From: Candidatus Latescibacterota bacterium
Lineage (GTDB): Bacteria; Latescibacterota; UBA2968; GCA-2709665
Length of the DNA stretch: 64,000 nucleotides
NCBI GenBank assembly: GCA_965116875.1
Contig: OZ220733.1
Location: 4,128,001-4,192,000 of the forward strand
Reading direction: 5' to 3'
Part shown: in pieces, positions 21,165 through 30,454 of the stretch
Layout of the letters: each line of letters starts with the position of its first letter
Position numbering within the stretch: the stretch's first letter is position 1
Position numbers and translations under genes: made by a program
The notes under the pieces: generated by a model
Databases searched by the model: none
Told to the model about the DNA's origin: nothing
What the model saw: the letters and a program-made list of their open reading frames with translations, nothing else

Positions 21165-22625
21165 TTATGCTTGCGAGGAGGTGACTTGCTCTCCCCAGCC
21201 ACCCCTGAAGGTGACTTCCAGCACCGTACTCGTACGATGCGTAACGGCCGCGAACCGGGCCGTACGCAAGCCGACCACCCAGAGGATGGCCTGCCCCCCC
21301 AGAAGCAGCGGGACTTCATCGCGCAGCGGTCTGGGGATCTTGAGGTTGATCAACAGGTCGCTTACCTTTTGTGTTCCGGACATTCCCAACGGCGCGAAAC
21401 GATCGGCACGCAGCCGGTTTCTGAGCGTCAGGCAGCCGCCGATCGCATCCAGATCGAAACAGGCGCGAAATGGATCGGACGACAGTTCGTCCTTTTGCAC
21501 GTCGCCGGCCGGCCTGAGCTTCGTCTCGACAGACGCACCGATTTCCGGAATCTCGGTGACGCCCGGAACGGCCACGTCGGTCTCGAACGCCGGCGTTGGG
21601 CGACTCAGGATCAGCCATGGACTCGAAAGATGAACGGAAATATCGGCAGACACCTGAACCGAACCGGCAGGCGCCAGACGCAGGCCTTCCATCCGGCCGA
21701 CGCCCTTCTCATCGAGGTCTCGGGCGCCGCCTCGAAGCTGAAAAAATGCGGTTCTGAACAACCTGCGCTGAAGTGCTATATGATAACCGAAAACGGCGTT
21801 TTCATCAAGGATTATTTTTCGTTTGCCCTCGTAACGCAGGGCCTTGCGGTATGCGGATTCAGCCTGCTGGCCAAGCAGTTGATCCTCACCCTGGATGATC
21901 TCCGCGGACCTTGCAAGGACCGCCTCGATCGAGGGGTTGTAATCCGATGCGATCTCCGGCAGAAGACGATGCCGGATCCGGTTCCGGAGGAAGCGGGTGT
22001 CCCTGTTGGAATCGTCGTGACGCACGTGCAGGTTCCGATGTGTAACGTATTCCTGTATCTGTTGCCGGGAGATCCCGAGGAGCGGGCGGATCCAGATCCC
22101 GTCGCGGACCGGTCTGATTCCGCCGAGCCCGGTCGTACCGGCGCCGCGAATCAGCCGCATCAGTACGGTTTCGGCCTGATCGCTGCGTGAATGACCCAGC
22201 GCGACGCGGGAAGCGCCGGTGTTTCGCAGGACGCGTTCGAAGAAAGCGAGTCGGGCGTCTCGCGCCGCTTCCTCAGGAGAGCCCCCGCCGGGCAGGGTCG
22301 CTCTTTCGGAAAAGCACGGAAGATCCATCGATGCGGCGAGATCCGATACGAACTGCTGGTCCTCATCCGAAGCCAAACCCCGCAGTTGATGGTTGAGGTG
22401 GGCAACGAAGAGCCGGAGGTCGAGGGAAATGCGAAGCCGTGACAGCAGATCCAGCAGTGAGACCGAGTCCGGCCCTCCGGATACGCCGATGACAATCCCA
22501 TCGCCCGGCCGGATCATGCCGTGCCTGTCAATATACGACTTCACGGCAGGAAACAGGTCGGATGTCGGGGAACTGGCGCCGGAACCCGGTTTCATGAGTG
22601 GATTATCCGTTCTTGCCGAGACCAT
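21165..22625 (-). CDS. tilS: tRNA(Ile)-lysidine synthase
   Basis: VSGGPDS PP-loop, [26 protein letters not shown]. Confidence 0.95.
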
Positions 22626-22938
22626 CAGGATTGTCCTGTTTCACTTTGACGGAGACTTCACTGGCGGTGACCGCTGTCCGCCTCTCTGAAGAGGCGACCG
22701 GTCTTTCGGATTTCCCGCGGCTGGATGCTGAAGGCGTAGCGCGCAGCGATTGGCGCCTTCGGCTGTGTGGCGATTTTCATGTCGGACGATGTCTCACGGT
22801 CGGGCTGGCTATTCGACGCTTGAGTATCCGGTTCGGTTTCTGAAAACCGGCTTCATCTGATCGAATTAAACACCTGATTATCAATTATATAGCCCGTTGG
22901 GACAGAAAACAGTCCAAGCGCGGCGTCCAGGCAGCATA

Positions 22939-22972
22939 AGAAAAAACACGCCGGTAGCAGCGTGTTTTTTCT
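22939..22972 (-). terminator. Intrinsic terminator after the redoxin operon
   Basis: agaaaaaacacgc-loop-gcgtgttttttct hairpin with a U-tract on both strands. Confidence 0.8.
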
Positions 22973-22995
22973 GTTCCGATTTACCCTGCCTGAAC

Positions 22996-23973
22996 TTATG
23001 GCACGCTCTTGCCGAAGTTCTTGGCGAATTCAAGAAAATCCGTGAAGTCGACCAGGCCGTTTCCATCCAGGTCGAAGGTCGGGTTGTCGGTGCTGAAGGC
23101 CTGGGCGAAGGCGACGAAGTCGCTGAATCCGATTTGTCCGTCATGGTCGAAGTCGGCCCGGGGATTGAGGGGTACAACGATGACCGCTCCGGAAACAGCG
23201 AGCGTGATGCTTCTGTTTTCCGGATCGTCGCTCAGGATTGTCAGGTTGCCGGAGAAGGGTCCGGATTCCGCCGGAGTGAATGTGATCGCCACTCTCGCGC
23301 TGTCTCCTGCCGCGACCGTTACCTCGGTCGTGTTAATAGAGATTTCCTCGAGATCGGATTGAATGTTGCTGATCGTGAGCGATTCTCCTCCGGTATTGTA
23401 CACGACCAGGGTGAGCGTTTTGGATACTCCGGCTGAAACGTCCTCGCCAAAGTCGAGTGAAGGTTTCGAAAGATCGATCGCCGGCGGCGGAACGCTCAGC
23501 AGTTCCCGGATACGCGCGGCCGTTGCGGTGATTGACGCAGGTTTTCGTATCCCGATGTGACGGATAATGCCCTTGCGGTCCACGACAAGCGTATGGTCAA
23601 CGCCGAGAGTTCTCGGAAACGCGCGGCCGGCCCGGAGGAGAAGCGGGAACGTGACACCGGTGACTCTTTGAAAGTCCCGCAGTTCCGATTTGCTGCCATT
23701 GTAGACGTCGAGTCCCAGAACCGTCAGGCTGTCATCCTGGAACGCCCTCCAAATCTGTCTTTCTATAGACGGACCCGTCTGTCTGCACAGGTCTCAGTTA
23801 TGGCCCAGGTAGTAGAGCACGAAGACGCGCCCCATGTAATCTGCGGGCGTGTAGGTCTTGTCATCCAACCCCGTGAGCGAGAAGGTCGGTACTGTGTCGC
23901 CGACCTTCTGAGCCCGTGCAGACGCAGGCGCGAAGAGTCCCAGAATCACTGCGGCAATCAAGGGTCGGTACAT
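22996..23973 (-). CDS. Putative selenoprotein B: exported redoxin (UDLC) + Ig-like domain + dockerin/EF-hand-like tail
   Basis: ATG 23973 with RBS gagg; signal peptide MYRPLIAAVILGLFAPASARA; VLYYLGHN-TGA(23794-23796)-DLCRQTGP, then open in frame to TAA 22996; 325 aa with Sec. Confidence 0.85.
23767..23793 (-). promoter_or_regulatory. Candidate bacterial SECIS, gene B
   Basis: AGACAGA-CGGG-UCCGUCU hairpin (one A.C mismatch), loop at +17 from UGA. Confidence 0.5.
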
Positions 23974-24027
23974 GGGATACCTCTTTCAGGAAGGGAAAGT
24001 CCTGCGGGTGTATACGCCCGGGGAAAC

Positions 24028-25011
24028 TCATGGCACGCTCTTGCCGAAGTTCTTGGCGAATTCGAGGAAGTCCGGGAAGTCGACTACGCCGTTCCCATTC
24101 AGGTCGAAGGTCGGGTTGTCGGTGCTGAAGGCCTGGGCGAAGGCGACGAAGTCGCTGAATCCGATTTGTCCGTCATTGTCGAAGTCCGCCCGGGGATTGA
24201 CCGGGACTACGATGGCGGTTCCGGAAATCGCGACGGTAACGGTGCCCTTCTCCGGGTCGTCGCTGGAAATGGTAATCGTCCCGGAAAACGGACCGCCCTC
24301 CGTGGGCGTAAAGGTGATGTCGACGGTAGCGCTGTCGCCCGGTGCGACCGTAAGTTCCGTCATGCTGAACGTGACGCCCTCCAGGTCGGACTCCAGGTTC
24401 GTAATGCTGAGGTCCTCCCCTCCCGTATTCTTCACGACGAGGGTTACGGTCCTGGTTTCGCCGGCCGGAACGTCCTGGCCGAAGTCGAGCGAAGTACCTG
24501 GAACATCGATTGCCGGCGGCTGAACGGTCAGCAATTCCCGGACGCTCGCCGCCGCTGCGCTGAGACCGGAAGCGCCGCGCCCGATGTGACGGACAATCCC
24601 TTCGCGGTCCGCGACCAGCAGAGTGTGGGTCCCGTGAGATCCCCTGATATTGCCTGCCTGAAGCAGGAGGGGAAACGAGATCGTGGACACGGACTGAAAA
24701 TTCCTGAGCTGAGCCTGACTGCCATTGTAGATGTCAAGTCCCAGGACCGCAAAGCCGTCATCATCCTGGAACGCCTTCCAGATCTGTTGTTCTATGGACG
24801 GACCCGCCGCCCGGCAGGTCGGTCAGTTATGGCCCAGGTAGTAAAGAGCCAGAACACTTCCCTCATAATTCGCGGAGGCATAGGTTTTGCCGTCCAGCCC
24901 CGTAAGCGAAAACGTTGGTACCGCGTCACCGACGTTCTGGGCTTCCGCGGGCCCGCCCGGGCAAAACCCCAGGACCAGCAGGAACACGACGCAGGCAGCG
25001 ATTCGACCCAT
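24028..25011 (-). CDS. Putative selenoprotein A: exported redoxin (UPTC) + Ig-like domain + dockerin/EF-hand-like tail
   Basis: AGGAGG RBS; signal peptide; LYYLGHN-TGA(24823-24825)-PTCRAAGPSIEQQIWKAFQ joins the 24028..24690 ORF in frame; 327 aa with Sec. Confidence 0.85.
24796..24822 (-). promoter_or_regulatory. Candidate bacterial SECIS, gene A
   Basis: GGGCGG-CGGGU-CCGUCC hairpin, loop at +17 from UGA. Confidence 0.5.
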
Positions 25012-25045
25012 TGCAATCCTCCTTTGAGATGGTGTGTGGTCTGCG

Positions 25046-26629
25046 TCAGAAATAGGTCTTCAGACGCATTTCAAGGCCATTGAACGGCAACACGAGATAG
25101 CATGTCCCGGATGTGCACGCGGCGCCGCCTCGCCTGCGGCCGGCGAATACGAAGGCTTCGTATCGATCGAGAAAGGCGACGTTCAGGTTGACCGACAGCC
25201 AGGAACGAGCCCCGGTCTCGACCCGGTCCGGCGTTGCGCCGTCATCCACTTCGAATGGATCGTTGGTGCGATCCAGTATGACTGCGGCGCCCACACCCGA
25301 GGGATGCTGGAAGGAAAACTGGGTAAAGACGTCCTGGAACACCGGCTGGTTTCGGGGCTGCCTGGCCGCGCGCCGGACCTGCAGATCGAAACCCAGGACA
25401 GACCCTCCGGGTGTAATGGATTCGACCCCCACACCGCCGATCCGGTGCATTCCGATTCCCTTCAGTTCGTCTTTTCCCCAATCAAAAAAGACGGTAGACG
25501 TCAAGCTGTGCCCGCCGGGCTGCCGAGGCAGTTCAACGTCCACGCCCAGATACCGCTCGTTGAACGTCGTTGAAAAGCCGGGCGCCAGTTCGTTCTCTCC
25601 CTTGCTGACGTTTGCCGTCAGCGTGCCCAGTCCGAAAATCGAATACGTTGCTTCCACCTGGTAGCCCGTTTCAGCATCGGCAATCAGGGCATGCGTGGAC
25701 CGGTTGAGCAGGACGGCCGCGTGTTCGCGGACCAGGGACGGGGGATCGTTGAAGCTGTAGGCGAATTTCTCATAGTCCTTGTATTCCAGGCTCAATCCCA
25801 GATTGGAAATGCCGGCGTTGGCCGAAAGATACAGAGCGCTGCCGTCCACGTGCGCGTCAATCAGCCCGGCGTATTCGGCGTAGACGGTCGCATAGCCGTC
25901 CGGAAAGCCCGATGCTTCAATTGCGGGCGTGACGTCGAATTCCAGAAAACCCGACCACGTTCGCGTGGAGTCAATCCTGGCGGCGTGATGGCTTACGGCC
26001 GTGACGCCGGCCTTGATCCGGCTCGTCGGTCGCAGCGAGACTTCCCCTCCGAGAAGCCAGTTTTCACGCCGTGGTACGTCCCGCAGAGGATCACCCACCC
26101 GCACCGCCGGCGGGATGTCGCTTAATACTGGACGGCCGATCAGGGCTTTTGCCTCGGCCCGGGGACCCGCCCAGGTGGCCATGCCGCCCTCGAGGTCTCG
26201 GGACGGCGAATAGCGGCGCCGGTATTGTCCGCTCTCCAGAACGACGCCAGGCAGATCGAAGGCCCTGAGCGTGATGCCGCGACCCAGGATGGCGTAGTAG
26301 TTGCCCGCAACCAGCTCGACCGGTCCCTGCGACCAGCGCAGGTGCTTCTGGGAAACATGCACGACCTGGTATTCAACCTGCGACAGCGGCGAGCCGGGAG
26401 CGGTGTTGCGCCATGCATTGAAAATCTCTGCCCGTAGTCCGGCCTGAAGACCGTGCCGCGTGTAATCGACGTCGAACTGCTCATAAAGTGACGAAACCGC
26501 CAGCGAGTCCGAGCCCGGGACGCGTCCCCGCTGGATTTCGGTCAGGCTGGATACGGTCACCTGCGCGACGACAGGCTTCGACGTCGCCAGCAGAAGGAGC
26601 ATTATCAGGCTATTGGTCAGCGCTCGCAT
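25046..26629 (-). CDS. DUF6029-like outer-membrane beta-barrel protein
   Basis: Signal peptide, AGNYYAILGRGITLR, EYKDY, NDPP, C-terminal GRRRGGAACTSGTCYLVLPFNGLEMRLKTYF ending in Phe. Confidence 0.75.
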   Translation of the reverse strand: MRALTNSLIMLLLLATSKPVVAQVTVSSLTEIQRGRVPGSDSLAVSSLYEQFDVDYTRHGLQAGLRAEIFNAWRNTAPGSPLSQVEYQVVHVSQKHLRWSQGPVELVAGNYYAILGRGITLRAFDLPGVVLESGQYRRRYSPSRDLEGGMATWAGPRAEAKALIGRPVLSDIPPAVRVGDPLRDVPRRENWLLGGEVSLRPTSRIKAGVTAVSHHAARIDSTRTWSGFLEFDVTPAIEASGFPDGYATVYAEYAGLIDAHVDGSALYLSANAGISNLGLSLEYKDYEKFAYSFNDPPSLVREHAAVLLNRSTHALIADAETGYQVEATYSIFGLGTLTANVSKGENELAPGFSTTFNERYLGVDVELPRQPGGHSLTSTVFFDWGKDELKGIGMHRIGGVGVESITPGGSVLGFDLQVRRAARQPRNQPVFQDVFTQFSFQHPSGVGAAVILDRTNDPFEVDDGATPDRVETGARSWLSVNLNVAFLDRYEAFVFAGRRRGGAACTSGTCYLVLPFNGLEMRLKTYF

Positions 26630-27149
26630 CGGCGTTCGCCCCGTCGTCGGCGCCGGGTTCGGGAAACAGCGCCTCGACTGCCGTCAGCAACACTTGGGCG
26701 TTTTTCGAATGATATCCGACCTGCCGCAGCGCAATCTCTCCGTCCGGGGTGATCAGGAGCGTCGTCGGCAGGACGTTCACCTGCATTCGCCGCATGACCG
26801 CGCTGTCAGAGTCGAGGACGATCGGGAAGTTGACCTTTCTCGCCCGCAGAAAGGGTTTCACACGGTTCTGCCCACGCGGCCCGTCCACGTTTACGCCAAG
26901 TACGGTAAGCCCTGATTTGCCGTACTTCTCGTGAATCTTCTGGAGCTTGGGCATCGCCTTGACGCAAGGCTTGCAGTAGGTCGCCCAGAAATCCAGAAGT
27001 ACCGGACCCTTTGTCAGCAGGTTTTTGAGGTTGACGCGTTCGCCCTGCAGGTCCCGGAGGTTGAAGTCGGGGGCCGAGGCGGCGTTCAGCGTCGCTGCGC
27101 CCAGGGAAATTGAGGCGGCGATGGTCAGGGTATGAACGATCGTCTTCAT
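26610..27149 (-). CDS. TlpA-family thiol-disulfide oxidoreductase, exported
   Basis: Signal peptide, APDFNL, DFWATYCKPC, VLPTTLLI. Confidence 0.92.
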   Translation of the reverse strand: MKTIVHTLTIAASISLGAATLNAASAPDFNLRDLQGERVNLKNLLTKGPVLLDFWATYCKPCVKAMPKLQKIHEKYGKSGLTVLGVNVDGPRGQNRVKPFLRARKVNFPIVLDSDSAVMRRMQVNVLPTTLLITPDGEIALRQVGYHSKNAQVLLTAVEALFPEPGADDGANADASADQ

Positions 27150-27600
27150 TCCCGCAGTTTCTCCTGTTTGCCTTGTCGATCGGCGTGTGTCGCCCTTTAA
27201 TTGAAATACGCCTGAAGGTTTCTCATGGTTCCGGACCGGAGTTCGCCAGCAAAATCCGCGCCGAACGGATTGCGGATCAATAAACGATAACCGAAAAATC
27301 TCGCTTCATCAAGGGCTTTTTTGCGTTGTTTCCGTGATGCCCTCAACGTGTCAGTGCGGACTGATGTCTGAAGAAGGGGACGGAGAAACAGCGGGCTTGT
27401 TGCCGAAAGGCGGTTTCCGCTTGCTGCGCGTCTCCGGTCGATCTATATTTGGGGTCGATATTTTCTCTCTTTGTCGCGGGCGACCGGTTCAATATGTCGC
27501 CCGGGTTCCGCAAGGTCCGCTGTGATGGTCTCAGCAGCGTGGCCGTTCGCAAGGCCGCCTGTTTTACGGACGGTCGTTGAATTTTACCGGAAGGGTCGCC

Positions 27601-28653
27601 ATGGTACACATCGGCATCATCGGTATCGGATTTATGGGAATGACCCACTATCGGGGCGCCCGCGGGGTGAAGGGCGGGAAGGTGGCGGCCATCTGCACGC
27701 GGGACGAAAAGAAACTGAGCGGGGATTGGCGGGGTATTCACGGAAACTTCGGGGAGCCCGGTGGTATCGAGGATCTGGCCGGTATCCGGACATACCGGAA
27801 GATCGACGATCTGCTGGCCGATCCCGGAGTCGATCTCGTGAACGTCTGCCTTCCTTCGGCGATGCACAAAGACGTGACAATCGCGGCGTTGCGTGCCGGT
27901 AAGCACGTATTGCTCGAGAAGCCCATCGCACTGAATCCGAAGGACGCCGACCGGATGGTTCAGGAGGCGGCAACTGCCGGACGCTCGCTGATGGTTGCGC
28001 AGGTACTTCCATTCTTTCCGGAGTTCGCCTTTGCCCGGAAGGTCGTCGCGGACGGCGAGTACGGAGCGCTGCTGGGCGCGCATTTCAAGCGTATCATCTC
28101 GCAGCCCGACTGGTCATCGGAATTCAGCGACGTCGAGCGGAGCGGGGGGCCGGGTATTGACCTGCACATCCACGATACCCATTACATTCTGCTGCTTTGC
28201 GGGGTGCCGGACCGCGTATCGTCCACCGGACGGTTGGTGAACGAACGACACGCGGAGTATTTGTGTACGAGCTACAGGTATCTGGACAGGCCGGACGTAA
28301 GCATAACCTGCGCTTCGGGTGCGATTTCTCAGCCCGGTCGTGCATTTGCCCACGGTTTCGAAATCTACCTTGAAAAGGCGACGTTGATTTACGAATTCGC
28401 CACGCTGGGCGACAAGCCGGTCCTGTCGACCCCCCTGACGCTGCTCACCGAAGACAGGAAGGTCCGGAATCCCAGACTGGGTTCCGGGGACCCGGTGGTG
28501 GCGTTTACGCGAGAGATTCAGGCCGCCGTGGACGAAGTGGCAAAAGGGATTCCGGCCGAGGCGCTGTCCGGGGTTCGGGCGGCGGACGCACTCAGGCTCT
28601 GCTTCAAGGAAGTCCAGTCCGTGCGTCTCGGCCGTGCGGTGCCGGTAAAATAA
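27601..28653 (+). CDS. Gfo/Idh/MocA-family oxidoreductase
   Basis: IGIIGIGFMG, GKHVLLEKP, GGPGIDLHIHD. Confidence 0.92.
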   Translation: MVHIGIIGIGFMGMTHYRGARGVKGGKVAAICTRDEKKLSGDWRGIHGNFGEPGGIEDLAGIRTYRKIDDLLADPGVDLVNVCLPSAMHKDVTIAALRAGKHVLLEKPIALNPKDADRMVQEAATAGRSLMVAQVLPFFPEFAFARKVVADGEYGALLGAHFKRIISQPDWSSEFSDVERSGGPGIDLHIHDTHYILLLCGVPDRVSSTGRLVNERHAEYLCTSYRYLDRPDVSITCASGAISQPGRAFAHGFEIYLEKATLIYEFATLGDKPVLSTPLTLLTEDRKVRNPRLGSGDPVVAFTREIQAAVDEVAKGIPAEALSGVRAADALRLCFKEVQSVRLGRAVPVK

Positions 28654-28718
28654 CAGAGAGGCGAGGGTAAGGAGGGGAAGACGCCGGATCGCAGAGAGGT
28701 CATCGGTGCAGAACGGAA

Positions 28719-28755
28719 AACGGGCGTGCGGCAAGGTCAAGGCCGCACGCCCGTT
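28719..28755. terminator. Perfect 14-bp stem hairpin between convergent genes
   Basis: aacgggcgtgcggc-aaggtcaag-gccgcacgcccgtt. Confidence 0.55.
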
Positions 28756-28821
28756 CAAACTTGGACCCGCAAGCGTGGATCCCATTGCAATATGCGTGGG
28801 TACGCCGAGGTACCGCCATGG

Positions 28822-30294
28822 TTAATTGCGGAATGCGAAATCGACAGGTTTACCCTGCGCGAACTCGGCTTCGACGTTGCCCAGCCCGAAAAGGGTCGCG
28901 GAAAGATCTCGCGGAGAGAGGGGTTCGGCTAGGGCGAGGCCCGCTGGCAATCCGGGTCCCACGAGCAGCGCACGACCGGCAGCGGCATCCAGTACCGCCA
29001 GGGTCGTGCGATTCCGGTAGCGGTGGTGTTCCTGGACGATTTTCCGGAGTTGCTCGATCGTCCTGCGACTGTCGGGGCCGTCGGTTAGCTGGAGAAGCAT
29101 CAGGTCTGGCTGCGCCCTTGGCAGGCACGCGACAGCCAGAGATGCCAGAAAGCTGTTCCTGAGTTTAAGATTTCTGTCGGACGATACCAGGGTTCTGACG
29201 ATCAGTCGAGAAAGGACTTTGTCCTTAACGGCCTTGGTTATTTTAAGCTTTTTGGGGTCCAGCGTCGGGTACACGACGTTTTCGATGAACGCCTGCGATC
29301 TGCCCTCCGAACGGGCTTCGTCCAGTGCTTGCCGGACCGTTTCCGCCGCTCTGGTCAACAACGAAGCCCGCACGGTCAGTGGTCCGAATTTCCTGTATTT
29401 CCTGTGAGAGCTCCGCTCCGGCGGGGCGCTGTCGTCCATGTAGAGCGCCAGCGTGCGGGTACGGGTCTTGTCCTTAATGGCGCGATTGTGATATTCGAAC
29501 AGCGTCGGATGTGCGAGCTTGTCGCCCTTCAGCGCGTCGTCGCGTCCCGTCAACAGGGTGGCCAGCCATCGTCTTGCCGGATCGGGGGCGGGCGCGGTCT
29601 GCAACAGGGTCCCCTGAGCGAGCAGGCTGTCGTTGAACGTTGAATCGGATGTACCGTATTGGCCCGGCATGATTGCAATCGCCAGAAGCGCGGGGGGAAA
29701 GTCCGTACCTTTATAGACAAACCGATTGAACGCGGCTTCGATTCTTGCTTTCTGTTCGGGCATGATCTGTATTTCCGGACTTCGACGTCTCCGCTGCACG
29801 GGGTCCCCGCGTTGCCCTATTCCCCCTCGCCGGCCAGGACCCTGTCGTCGTCCAATTCCCTGCCGGTCTCCCGCGTCGGTACGTTGCCGGGGCCCCGTTC
29901 GCCGGGCGAAGATGCCTGCGATCGCCTCGCCGAAAGCCTCCCGCAGGTCCCCATCCGACACTTCGCCGGCCCTCGCGAAAAAGAGCCTGAATCGTTCCTT
30001 TTCCCGCGGGAAGAAATCGTCCCAGGCAGCCAGTGAGTTCAGTACATAGGACCTGATGGGCAAGGGGAACCGGTTGAACGTCCCTTCGTTCCCCTTCACG
30101 AGGTCGTAGGCGCCCGAGGGTAGATCGGAGTACCGGTCGTTCCGAATCGGGCTAAGGTCGACGCCCCCGCCTCCGCCTCGTCTCCTTCCGCCTCCCCTCC
30201 CCTGTGCAAGCGCGTCCTCACACGCGAGCGCCAGGACAAGAAATGTCGCCGCGACCGATACGATCCCGTGAGAGGACTTCTGAAAAACCGGCAT
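28822..30294 (-). CDS. Hypothetical exported protein with Gly/Arg-rich low-complexity segments
   Basis: ATG 30294 after ggagg; signal-like ATFLVLALACEDALAQ; C-terminus LLVGPGLPAG..DLSATL resembles alkaline-phosphatase-fold ends. Confidence 0.6.
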   Translation of the reverse strand: MPVFQKSSHGIVSVAATFLVLALACEDALAQGRGGGRRRGGGGGVDLSPIRNDRYSDLPSGAYDLVKGNEGTFNRFPLPIRSYVLNSLAAWDDFFPREKERFRLFFARAGEVSDGDLREAFGEAIAGIFARRTGPRQRTDAGDRQGIGRRQGPGRRGGIGQRGDPVQRRRRSPEIQIMPEQKARIEAAFNRFVYKGTDFPPALLAIAIMPGQYGTSDSTFNDSLLAQGTLLQTAPAPDPARRWLATLLTGRDDALKGDKLAHPTLFEYHNRAIKDKTRTRTLALYMDDSAPPERSSHRKYRKFGPLTVRASLLTRAAETVRQALDEARSEGRSQAFIENVVYPTLDPKKLKITKAVKDKVLSRLIVRTLVSSDRNLKLRNSFLASLAVACLPRAQPDLMLLQLTDGPDSRRTIEQLRKIVQEHHRYRNRTTLAVLDAAAGRALLVGPGLPAGLALAEPLSPRDLSATLFGLGNVEAEFAQGKPVDFAFRN

Positions 30295-30454
30295 ATATCG
30301 CCTCCCTGAGCAATTGTCATCGACTGACGAACCGTTATGGAACCGGCGCGTACGCCGACTCGCGTTTGGGTCTCTGAGCATCGTGCGTTCGTGAACCTCC
30401 CTTCCGGCGCGAAGGAAGTCGAAAACGTCGCGAAAACCGACCTGCAAGGATCGT

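Follow-up and report, generated by a model that had tools for sequence, protein, structure and literature searches.

Encoded on the minus strand of a 64,000-nucleotide stretch of a Candidatus Latescibacterota genome (contig OZ220733.1, positions 4,128,001 to 4,192,000; called the window here and numbered from its first letter) are two adjacent genes, A and B, each with a TGA codon within its frame. We read them as intact, tandem-duplicated genes for exported selenocysteine (Sec) redoxins rather than as one broken gene, with a probability of about 0.85; that the TGA in each encodes Sec is almost certain. Gene A (24028..25011, minus) codes for 327 residues when its TGA is read as Sec (U) and ends at a TGA stop of its own. 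Its predicted product consists of a signal peptide, a UxxC redoxin domain, an immunoglobulin-like (Ig-like) domain and a dockerin-like tail.

Two tandem genes with an in-frame TGA

Gene A starts with the ATG at 25011 and meets the TGA at 24825..24823 after 62 codons, from where the frame runs without a stop to the TGA at 24030..24028. The original prediction, made from the letters of the window, had described a 62-residue open reading frame (ORF) at 24823..25011 (minus) that ends at this TGA, accurately in both coordinates and wording, and a continuation of the same frame into the 220-residue ORF at 24028..24690, between which there is indeed no stop. The TGA is codon 63 (24823..24825, minus; motif GHN-U-PTC), and the product around it reads LYYLGHN-U-PTC-RAAGPSIEQQIW, with U in place of the first Cys of a CxxC redox motif. 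That placement, also proposed at the outset, agrees with solved relatives, whose CxxC (CGVC of 2ls5_A and CPYC of 3hdc_A) aligns with U-P-T-C.

Adjoining gene A downstream is gene B (22996..23973, minus; 325 residues, TAA stop), which has the same architecture and is 65% identical to A over 318 residues. Its TGA (23794..23796, minus; codon 60, motif GHN-U-DLC) falls in the same alignment column as that of gene A. Because the paralog carries TGA in this column and 76 of the 81 sites in relatives described below do so too, the other five being TGT or TGC, the placement is far beyond chance.

Antisense to both genes is a 508-codon open frame (23557..25083, plus) without a family match, best read as a shadow frame of two GC-rich genes (the window has a GC content of 59%).

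Only TGA or Cys codons occupy the site

The search covered 61 related genomes, from the same genus to the same class, and recovered TGA-containing homologs down to about 30% identity. The homologous codon was placed by tblastn in 57 further fetched stretches, keeping only alignments that span the codon and counting sites with identical 90 downstream bases once; four fetched loci (L062, L067, L086 and L090) have no separate row, being duplicates or missed alignments. The resulting 81 distinct sites represent at least 51 of the 61 genomes, which often hold several copies each; 76 of the sites have TGA, four TGT and one TGC, and no other codon occurs. Outside the lineage, the nearest relatives in a collection of species genomes (at most 37% identity) are Cys-type TlpA-like proteins (WxxWCxxC) or BCP-type peroxiredoxins.

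Several loci hold tandem arrays that mix Sec and Cys paralogs: the order is U, C, U in L053, and in L048 and L106 a C copy stands beside a U copy (relatives G020, G018 and G054). The public orthologs found are truncated proteins of 197–303 residues only, named for 'choice-of-anchor D' or 'DUF1573'.

Contigs from two studies (runs X1 and X2, of which X1 may be the source sample of the window) cover both TGAs, and no letter differs. A sponge-metagenome contig (X3, 24631..24835) and a 198-nucleotide contig from a sponge metatranscriptome library (X5, 24774..24971) match the window letter for letter over the TGA of copy A and the two hairpins described below. Since independent contigs carry the same letters, an assembly error at the TGA is excluded. 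X5 bridges the UGA of copy A and is compatible with transcription of that copy. The host bacterium is probably sponge-associated; X3 and X5 came up with small shares of query words (0.24 and 0.08), and the sponge habitat is only a lead.

The original prediction had exposed itself at three points, namely the homologous codon, the possibility of TGC or TGT in reads, and selection on the downstream frame. It withstood all of them: codon 63 is only TGA (Sec) or Cys in homologs, independent contigs carry TGA, and the frame downstream of the TGA is under purifying selection, with dN/dS values against 14 genus orthologs of 0.10–0.25, compared with 0.10–0.26 upstream.

Two hairpins downstream of the UGA

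Just downstream of each UGA is a hairpin of the selenocysteine insertion sequence (SECIS) type. That of gene A (24796..24812, minus) comprises nucleotides 14–30, counted from the U of UGA, and forms GGGCGG-cgggu-CCGUCC, with 6 base pairs (bp), 16 nucleotides after UGA; in another register it is GGCG-gguc-CGUC. That of gene B (23767..23780, minus; nucleotides 17–30) is AGACG-gguc-CGUCU, with 5 bp, 18 nucleotides after UGA.

A scan for the longest ungapped stem with a loop of 3–6 nucleotides was run at each position of 210 nucleotides around the 76 Sec sites. Hairpin potential peaks at only two places, +15 and +24 from the U of UGA, where 72% and 78% of the sequences, respectively, reach 5 bp; at the other positions mostly less than about 10% do so, with a few local values of 20–36%. 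Centred between +21.5 and +25, a hairpin of at least 4 bp is present at all 76 sites and one of at least 5 bp at 61. The +24 hairpin takes 32 distinct stem/loop forms, with gguc (22), cgggu (20) and guc (17) as loops. The bacterial SECIS (bSECIS) model, as set out in PMC13188914, has a loop of 3–9 nucleotides, an upper stem of 4–16 bp, G in the first two loop positions, a distance of 16–37 nucleotides from UGA and a minimum free energy of at most −7.5 kcal/mol. All four constraints of that model (PMC13188914) hold at 70 of the 76 Sec sites, including both window copies, for which the constrained minimum free energy is −15.8 (copy A, loop CGGGU) and −12.8 (copy B, loop GGUC).

Pairs were counted in an ungapped alignment of 68 distinct 39-nucleotide sequences. 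In the GGUC-loop register 73.8% of cells are paired, against 46–57% when the register is slid, and none of 500 shuffles reaches 73.8%; in the CGGGU-loop register the value is 65.9%. A GUC-loop register (14–22 with 26–34) was rejected as a family-wide consensus, its 56% of paired cells being below the −1 slide and not above the shuffles; it is the best hairpin in 17 sequences. The motif GGGUCC downstream of the UGA is conserved in most Sec forms, synonymous positions included, and is missing in some Cys forms. Of the five Cys forms, L048 and L080 practically lack a hairpin and the other three retain one; Cys copies with a retained hairpin (for example, GGACG-guc-CGUCC in L106) suggest that Sec and Cys were exchanged recently, in one direction or the other.

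The +15 peak corresponds to a stem joining nucleotides 4–12, the codons after UGA, to nucleotides 19–27, in which lies GGGUCC, the apex of the SECIS-type hairpin; the two hairpins are mutually exclusive. This alternative hairpin is the minimum-energy fold of the free RNA in both copies: GACCUGCC-gggc-GGCGGGUC in gene A (24801..24820, minus; nucleotides 6–25) and GACCUGU-gcagacag-ACGGGUC in gene B (23772..23793, minus; nucleotides 4–25). Of the 76 Sec homologs, 62 have it with 5 bp or more; 73.7% of its cells are paired, against 32–54% when slid, and its pair 4–27 is C-G in 29 sequences and G-C in 20. The complementary GACCUG lies two bases earlier in copy B than in copy A, and this different reading register argues for selection on the pairing rather than on the peptide. 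A ribosome positioned at the UGA would cover roughly the first dozen downstream bases, melting the alternative hairpin and freeing the SECIS-type one. The lower stem of the Escherichia coli fdhF element is said to be melted by the ribosome likewise.

Because the unconstrained folds of the window copies choose the alternative hairpin, we do not cite the minimum-energy fold as evidence for a SECIS. An Rfam scan of 22900..25100 with E values up to 10 returned two chance matches to small RNAs and no SECIS family.

Sec machinery and the use of TGA as a stop

The genome to which the window belongs is a single contig of 5.45 Mb and holds selA, selB, selC and selD. Beside its tRNA-Sec (73.4 bits, cut-off 47; anticodon TCA) are selA (474.8 bits) and selB, identified by the winged-helix domain of SelB (74.6 bits). 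Elsewhere in the genome is selD (366 bits; G000:C1:1070717-1071640, outside the window), which contains one in-frame TGA within its match to TIGR00476, and SelD is probably itself a selenoprotein. TGA is the commonest stop in the window and is not reassigned: besides closing gene A, it terminates 19 of the 30 window frames that stay open for at least 350 codons, a set that includes some shadow frames. Homologous codons, independent contigs, purifying selection, a bSECIS-type hairpin and the Sec machinery together bear out the proposal that gene A encodes a selenoprotein.

Domains and predicted fold

At the N terminus of A is a putative signal peptide (24940..25011, minus; residues 1–24), with a helix at residues 2–15 in the structural model and a predicted cleavage site after A-E-A. 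For both A and B the signal peptide was judged by eye from the sequence and from the N-terminal helix of the A model, and the cleavage site from the −3/−1 rule.

The redoxin domain of A (24526..24933, minus; approximately residues 27–162) has a ResA/TlpA-like thioredoxin fold and belongs to PF00578 (AhpC-TSA; 40.6 bits, cut-off 26) and PF08534 (Redoxin; 28.2 bits, cut-off 26.6), with matches that cross the TGA (residues 27–147); gene B matches PF00578 with 46.8 bits (cut-off 26). The AlphaFold2 model of A, made with a 63-row alignment, has a mean pLDDT of 92.2 and comprises the N-terminal helix, the thioredoxin fold, a β-sandwich (174–267) and two short tail helices. U63 sits at the N terminus of a helix (64–81) with C66 as its partner; the proline of FPLL, P114, is nearly invariant. 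C63 and C66 are two of only four invariant columns in the 63-sequence alignment. Best Foldseek matches to this domain are 2ls5, ResA 1su9 (TM 0.83), DsbE 3gl3 and the C-terminal domain of DipZ.

Following the redoxin domain is an Ig-like β-sandwich (24211..24519, minus; approximately residues 165–267) of the choice-of-anchor D, HYDIN/VesB/ASH or DUF1573 type, detected by Pfam at residues 167–265 and by NF012200 (choice-of-anchor D; 53.4 bits, cut-off 45), with PapD-like and ASH domains as its best Foldseek matches. The C terminus is a dockerin-like tail (24037..24195, minus; approximately residues 273–325) with two EF-hand-like repeats, at residues 275–325 in Pfam. It matches the dockerin 2y3n_B with an E value of 7.9e-4, and the 'GC-type dockerin' model NF041540 (cut-off 29) with 29.8 bits in A and 26.7 bits, below the cut-off, in B. 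None of the NCBIfam selenoprotein models reaches its cut-off for A or B.

The architecture varies among relatives. In two genus members (L044 and L045; G005 and G014) gene A runs into a second Ig-like domain, giving at least 433 codons. Among order-level relatives, open frames that begin with the Sec redoxin extend to about 1,700 residues and contain many Ig-like repeats. In some other relatives the Ig-dockerin part is a separate downstream ORF.

Operon and genome context

Upstream of genes A and B on the same strand are two further genes of a conserved operon. The first (26610..27149, minus) encodes a Cys-type TlpA/ResA-like redoxin (WATYCKPC; PF00578, 89 bits) with a signal peptide; its ORF shares 20 nucleotides with that of the DUF6029 protein (25046..26629, minus; PF19494, Atlas score 0.98 to DUF6029 clusters), which is directly upstream of gene A. 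The DUF6029 protein is a probable outer-membrane β-barrel; PMC9603273 likens DUF6029 to the Wzi outer-membrane barrel by HHpred. The Sec redoxins are followed by tilS and ftsH, and upstream of the operon is a divergent GFO/IDH/MocA gene.

The order TlpA-like redoxin, DUF6029, Sec redoxin(s), tilS is found in all 11 genus loci with 3-kb flanks, some with one and others with two Sec redoxin copies. DUF6029 is also adjacent in three family-level loci (54–55% identity); two order-level loci lack it in their 1.5-kb flanks. In a scan of 22500..27800, promoter and terminator sites were no more frequent than in shuffles.

Searching the genome with the protein of gene A gives 106 matches, mostly to the dockerin-like tail (residues 260–327), which is a lineage-wide tag. 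The tail-bearing proteins vary greatly in size, and several of their frames, as listed, include a single TGA or TAG. The genome has only three cohesin matches above the cut-off (G000:C1:1571003-1571368, 683111-683479 and 685094-685426), and one gene encodes a membrane reductant, DsbD_TM of the DsbD/CcdA type.

Alternative readings

Were the TGA a true stop, gene A would be a decayed gene, or else a 62-residue exported peptide followed by a separately translated Ig-dockerin protein, as the public databases seem to imply by holding only downstream ORFs of 197–241 residues ('choice-of-anchor D domain-containing protein'); TGA is, moreover, the commonest stop in the window. We regard this as extremely improbable: the redoxin domain crosses the TGA and the downstream ORF would start inside the thioredoxin fold, 76 sites, in homologs as distant as about 30% identity, keep TGA in the same column, where Cys is the only replacement, dN/dS is equally low on either side, and the genome has the Sec machinery and the gene a SECIS-type hairpin. 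Scarcely more credible is the reading of the TGA as a standard amino acid, through genome-wide reassignment (codes 4 or 25) or near-cognate suppression, for which nothing specific speaks; a C, which makes for a leaky termination context, follows the UGA in copy A. It conflicts with the TGA that ends gene A and 19 of 30 long window frames, with Cys as the only replacement in homologs beside a complete selABCD set, and with the conservation of GGGUCC in most Sec forms and the lack of the hairpin in the Cys forms L048 and L080. The pseudogene, two-gene and code-reassignment readings were rejected on the domain spanning the TGA, the Sec/Cys column, selection and TGA as a normal stop.

A further reading accepts A and B as genuine selenoproteins but makes them thiol/selenol peroxidases, similar to glutathione peroxidases or peroxiredoxins (Prx), that remove peroxide at the cell surface. 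In its favour, AhpC-TSA is the top Pfam match, the family is called 'Prx-like' in the literature, Sec is typical of peroxidases, and B has a weak glutathione-peroxidase match (19 bits, cut-off 270). Several features nevertheless make this reading unlikely. The U-x-x-C lies at the N terminus of helix 1, as in ResA, TlpA and DsbE, and is not the T-x-x-C of peroxiredoxins; A (GHN-U-PTC) lacks the Prx/BCP motif P-x-x-x-T/S-x-x-C, and BCP-type relatives put Thr or Ser at the column of U63 and the peroxidatic Cys at that of C66. The nearest folds are ResA, DsbE and a putative disulfide isomerase, and the operon partner is a TlpA-like reductant. Disulfide-reductase chemistry, predicted from fold and motif, is somewhat more probable than not for A and B.

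Certain observations weigh against tandem Sec redoxins as described here. The window hairpins are short at 6 and 5 bp and, taken in isolation, have energies of −7.8 and −4.5 kcal/mol; no single register fits all homologs, as it shifts between subfamilies; the unconstrained minimum-energy fold favours the competing hairpin in both copies; the fold of copy B is no better than shuffles (z −0.82); and the shuffle controls on pair counts ignore relatedness. The RNA contig X5 may stem from DNA in the library and cannot show translation. Selenium incorporation into both proteins is predicted from sequence, and the reductase role from fold and motif, with ResA-subfamily scores of 32–38 bits against 170. 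A location beyond the outer membrane, a cohesin partner and the role of DUF6029 are putative.

Proposed mechanism

We infer selenium incorporation, redox direction, substrate, electron route and cellular location of A and B as follows. The in-frame UGA would be decoded as Sec by Sec-tRNA(Sec), brought by SelB bound to the small hairpin whose apical loop, containing G/U, lies 16–18 nucleotides downstream of the UGA. In free mRNA the SelB loop may instead be paired with the codons after the UGA, a pairing that a ribosome arriving at the UGA would melt. Each product would be exported through its N-terminal signal peptide. The U63 selenolate would then attack a substrate in the envelope or at the surface, at a disulfide or some other oxidised form of sulfur or selenium, and C66 would resolve the intermediate, yielding a selenenylsulfide. 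Re-reduction may proceed via the co-transcribed Cys-type TlpA-like redoxin and the single DsbD/CcdA-type membrane reductant of the cell. The Ig-like domain is likely to serve as a spacer, and the dockerin-like tail may anchor the enzyme, in the envelope or at the surface, to a partner that carries a cohesin, the DUF6029 barrel being a candidate outer-membrane partner. Display at the surface through a cohesin is a tentative part of this scheme, and one that we rather doubt.

A bolder version would make the operon an envelope-spanning selenol/thiol relay, in which the periplasmic Cys TlpA-like protein and the DUF6029 barrel serve one or two surface-displayed, dockerin-tethered selenoenzymes, and expression is gated by a two-state mRNA hairpin that hides the SelB loop until the ribosome melts it. 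We hold this version to be improbable as a whole; if true, it would provide the first surface-displayed, dockerin-tethered selenoprotein.

Relation to known systems

By Pfam family and motif definition, the predicted proteins A and B are members of the Prx-like selenoprotein family. Table 1 of a 2026 review (PMC13188914) lists among prokaryotic selenoprotein families both a 'Prx-like thiol:disulfide oxidoreductase' (PF00578; UxxC, UxxU) and a 'Redoxin family protein' (PF08534; UxxC). Two surveys give 22 Prx-like (UxxC) selenoprotein sequences in the Sargasso Sea and 225 in the Global Ocean Sampling (GOS) data, and report domain fusions of such proteins (PMC1088965, PMC2398784). UxxC redoxin selenoproteins have been described since 2004–2008, under the name 'Prx-like 1' in the GOS survey. 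The original prediction called UxxC thioredoxin-fold selenoproteins established, which is correct according to these sources: the PF00578 family has long been listed and is abundant in bacteria (PMC13188914 Table 1, PMC1088965, PMC2398784). Its description of the exported, multidomain architecture as unusual stands only for the Ig-like/dockerin tail, since the exported UxxC redoxin itself is known and fusions have been reported.

Shared with Prx-like selenoproteins are PF00578, the thioredoxin-type U-x-x-C site, the alternation of Sec and Cys and a SECIS just downstream in the coding region; like the clade of A and B, these proteins are abundant in marine microbes and routinely mis-annotated. 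Unlike them, A and B, assigned to the family by Pfam and motif, combine the redoxin domain in one chain with an Ig-like domain (choice-of-anchor D) and a dockerin-like tail, and are tandem Sec paralogs whose operon also encodes a Cys TlpA-like redoxin and DUF6029.

The modelled fold of A is similar to those of ResA, TlpA and DsbE (CcmG) (1su9, 3c71, 3gl3 and 4nmu; TM 0.80–0.84 normalised to the target, r.m.s.d. 2.1–2.7 Å). Its UxxC aligns with the CxxC of these reductants, it is predicted to be exported as they are, and the genome encodes a DsbD/CcdA-type reductant. Unlike Bacillus subtilis ResA, it has Sec for the nucleophilic Cys and carries Ig-like and dockerin-like domains in addition, and its gene is not linked to those for cytochrome c maturation. 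The two proteins score 32.1 and 37.8 bits with the curated NCBIfam ResA model (cut-off 170), far too low for A and B to be ResA orthologs. The best match in both sequence (E 1.6e-9) and fold (Foldseek E 3.3e-12, TM 0.78) is a putative protein disulfide isomerase of Bacteroides thetaiotaomicron (2ls5), with which A shares the stretch after the motif, C-x-x-C-R...P-x-IE-x-x-IW. Unlike A, 2ls5 is a single-domain Cys protein, of uncharacterised function.

The tail of A, with its two EF-hand-like repeats and cohesins in the genome, is similar to cellulosomal dockerins (2y3n) and to the 'GC-type dockerin domain-anchored protein'. Unlike in cellulosomal display, the predicted cargo of A and B is a selenoenzyme and not a glycoside hydrolase. 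The tail suggests that the cohesin–dockerin system of these probably sponge-associated bacteria carries redox enzymes besides hydrolases. Judged by titles and the beginnings of abstracts, no paper was found on dockerin-bearing selenoproteins or on selenoproteins of Latescibacterota, the GOS supplements that list fusion selenoproteins lying outside the search; on that basis only, the dockerin-tethered selenoprotein architecture is unpublished.

The SECIS of E. coli fdhF is a small hairpin just downstream of the UGA. The hairpins of A, B and their relatives are similar to the bSECIS model given in PMC13188914 in having an apical loop with G followed by G/U, often GGUC at nucleotides 22–25, that lies 16–18 nucleotides after the UGA. 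They differ from fdhF and bSECIS in their stems of 4–9 bp, in register shifts between subfamilies and in the conservation of a second, mutually exclusive hairpin (nucleotides 4–12 with 19–27).

In sum, A and B genuinely belong to a well-known selenoprotein family, of which they are ordinary representatives that public databases mis-annotate, and the understanding of Sec decoding is unchanged by them. What marks them out is the Ig-like and dockerin architecture specific to their lineage, the tandem duplication and the second hairpin. Gene callers routinely cut such genes in two, and, as the public orthologs are truncated, a clade of Latescibacterota selenoenzymes is invisible in protein databases. 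The mixed Sec/Cys tandem arrays provide a natural series for studying the conditions under which an extracytoplasmic redoxin uses selenium in preference to sulfur.

Other features of the window

Upstream of the operon on the minus strand are ORFs of 659, 223 and 335 residues (28822..30801, 28114..28785 and 31347..32354, respectively) that have no Pfam match at E values of at most 1e-5. Further along, on the plus strand, are tRNA-Ile(GAT) and tRNA-Ala(TGC) (34342..34515), separated by 22 nucleotides, the usual spacer pair of an rRNA operon.

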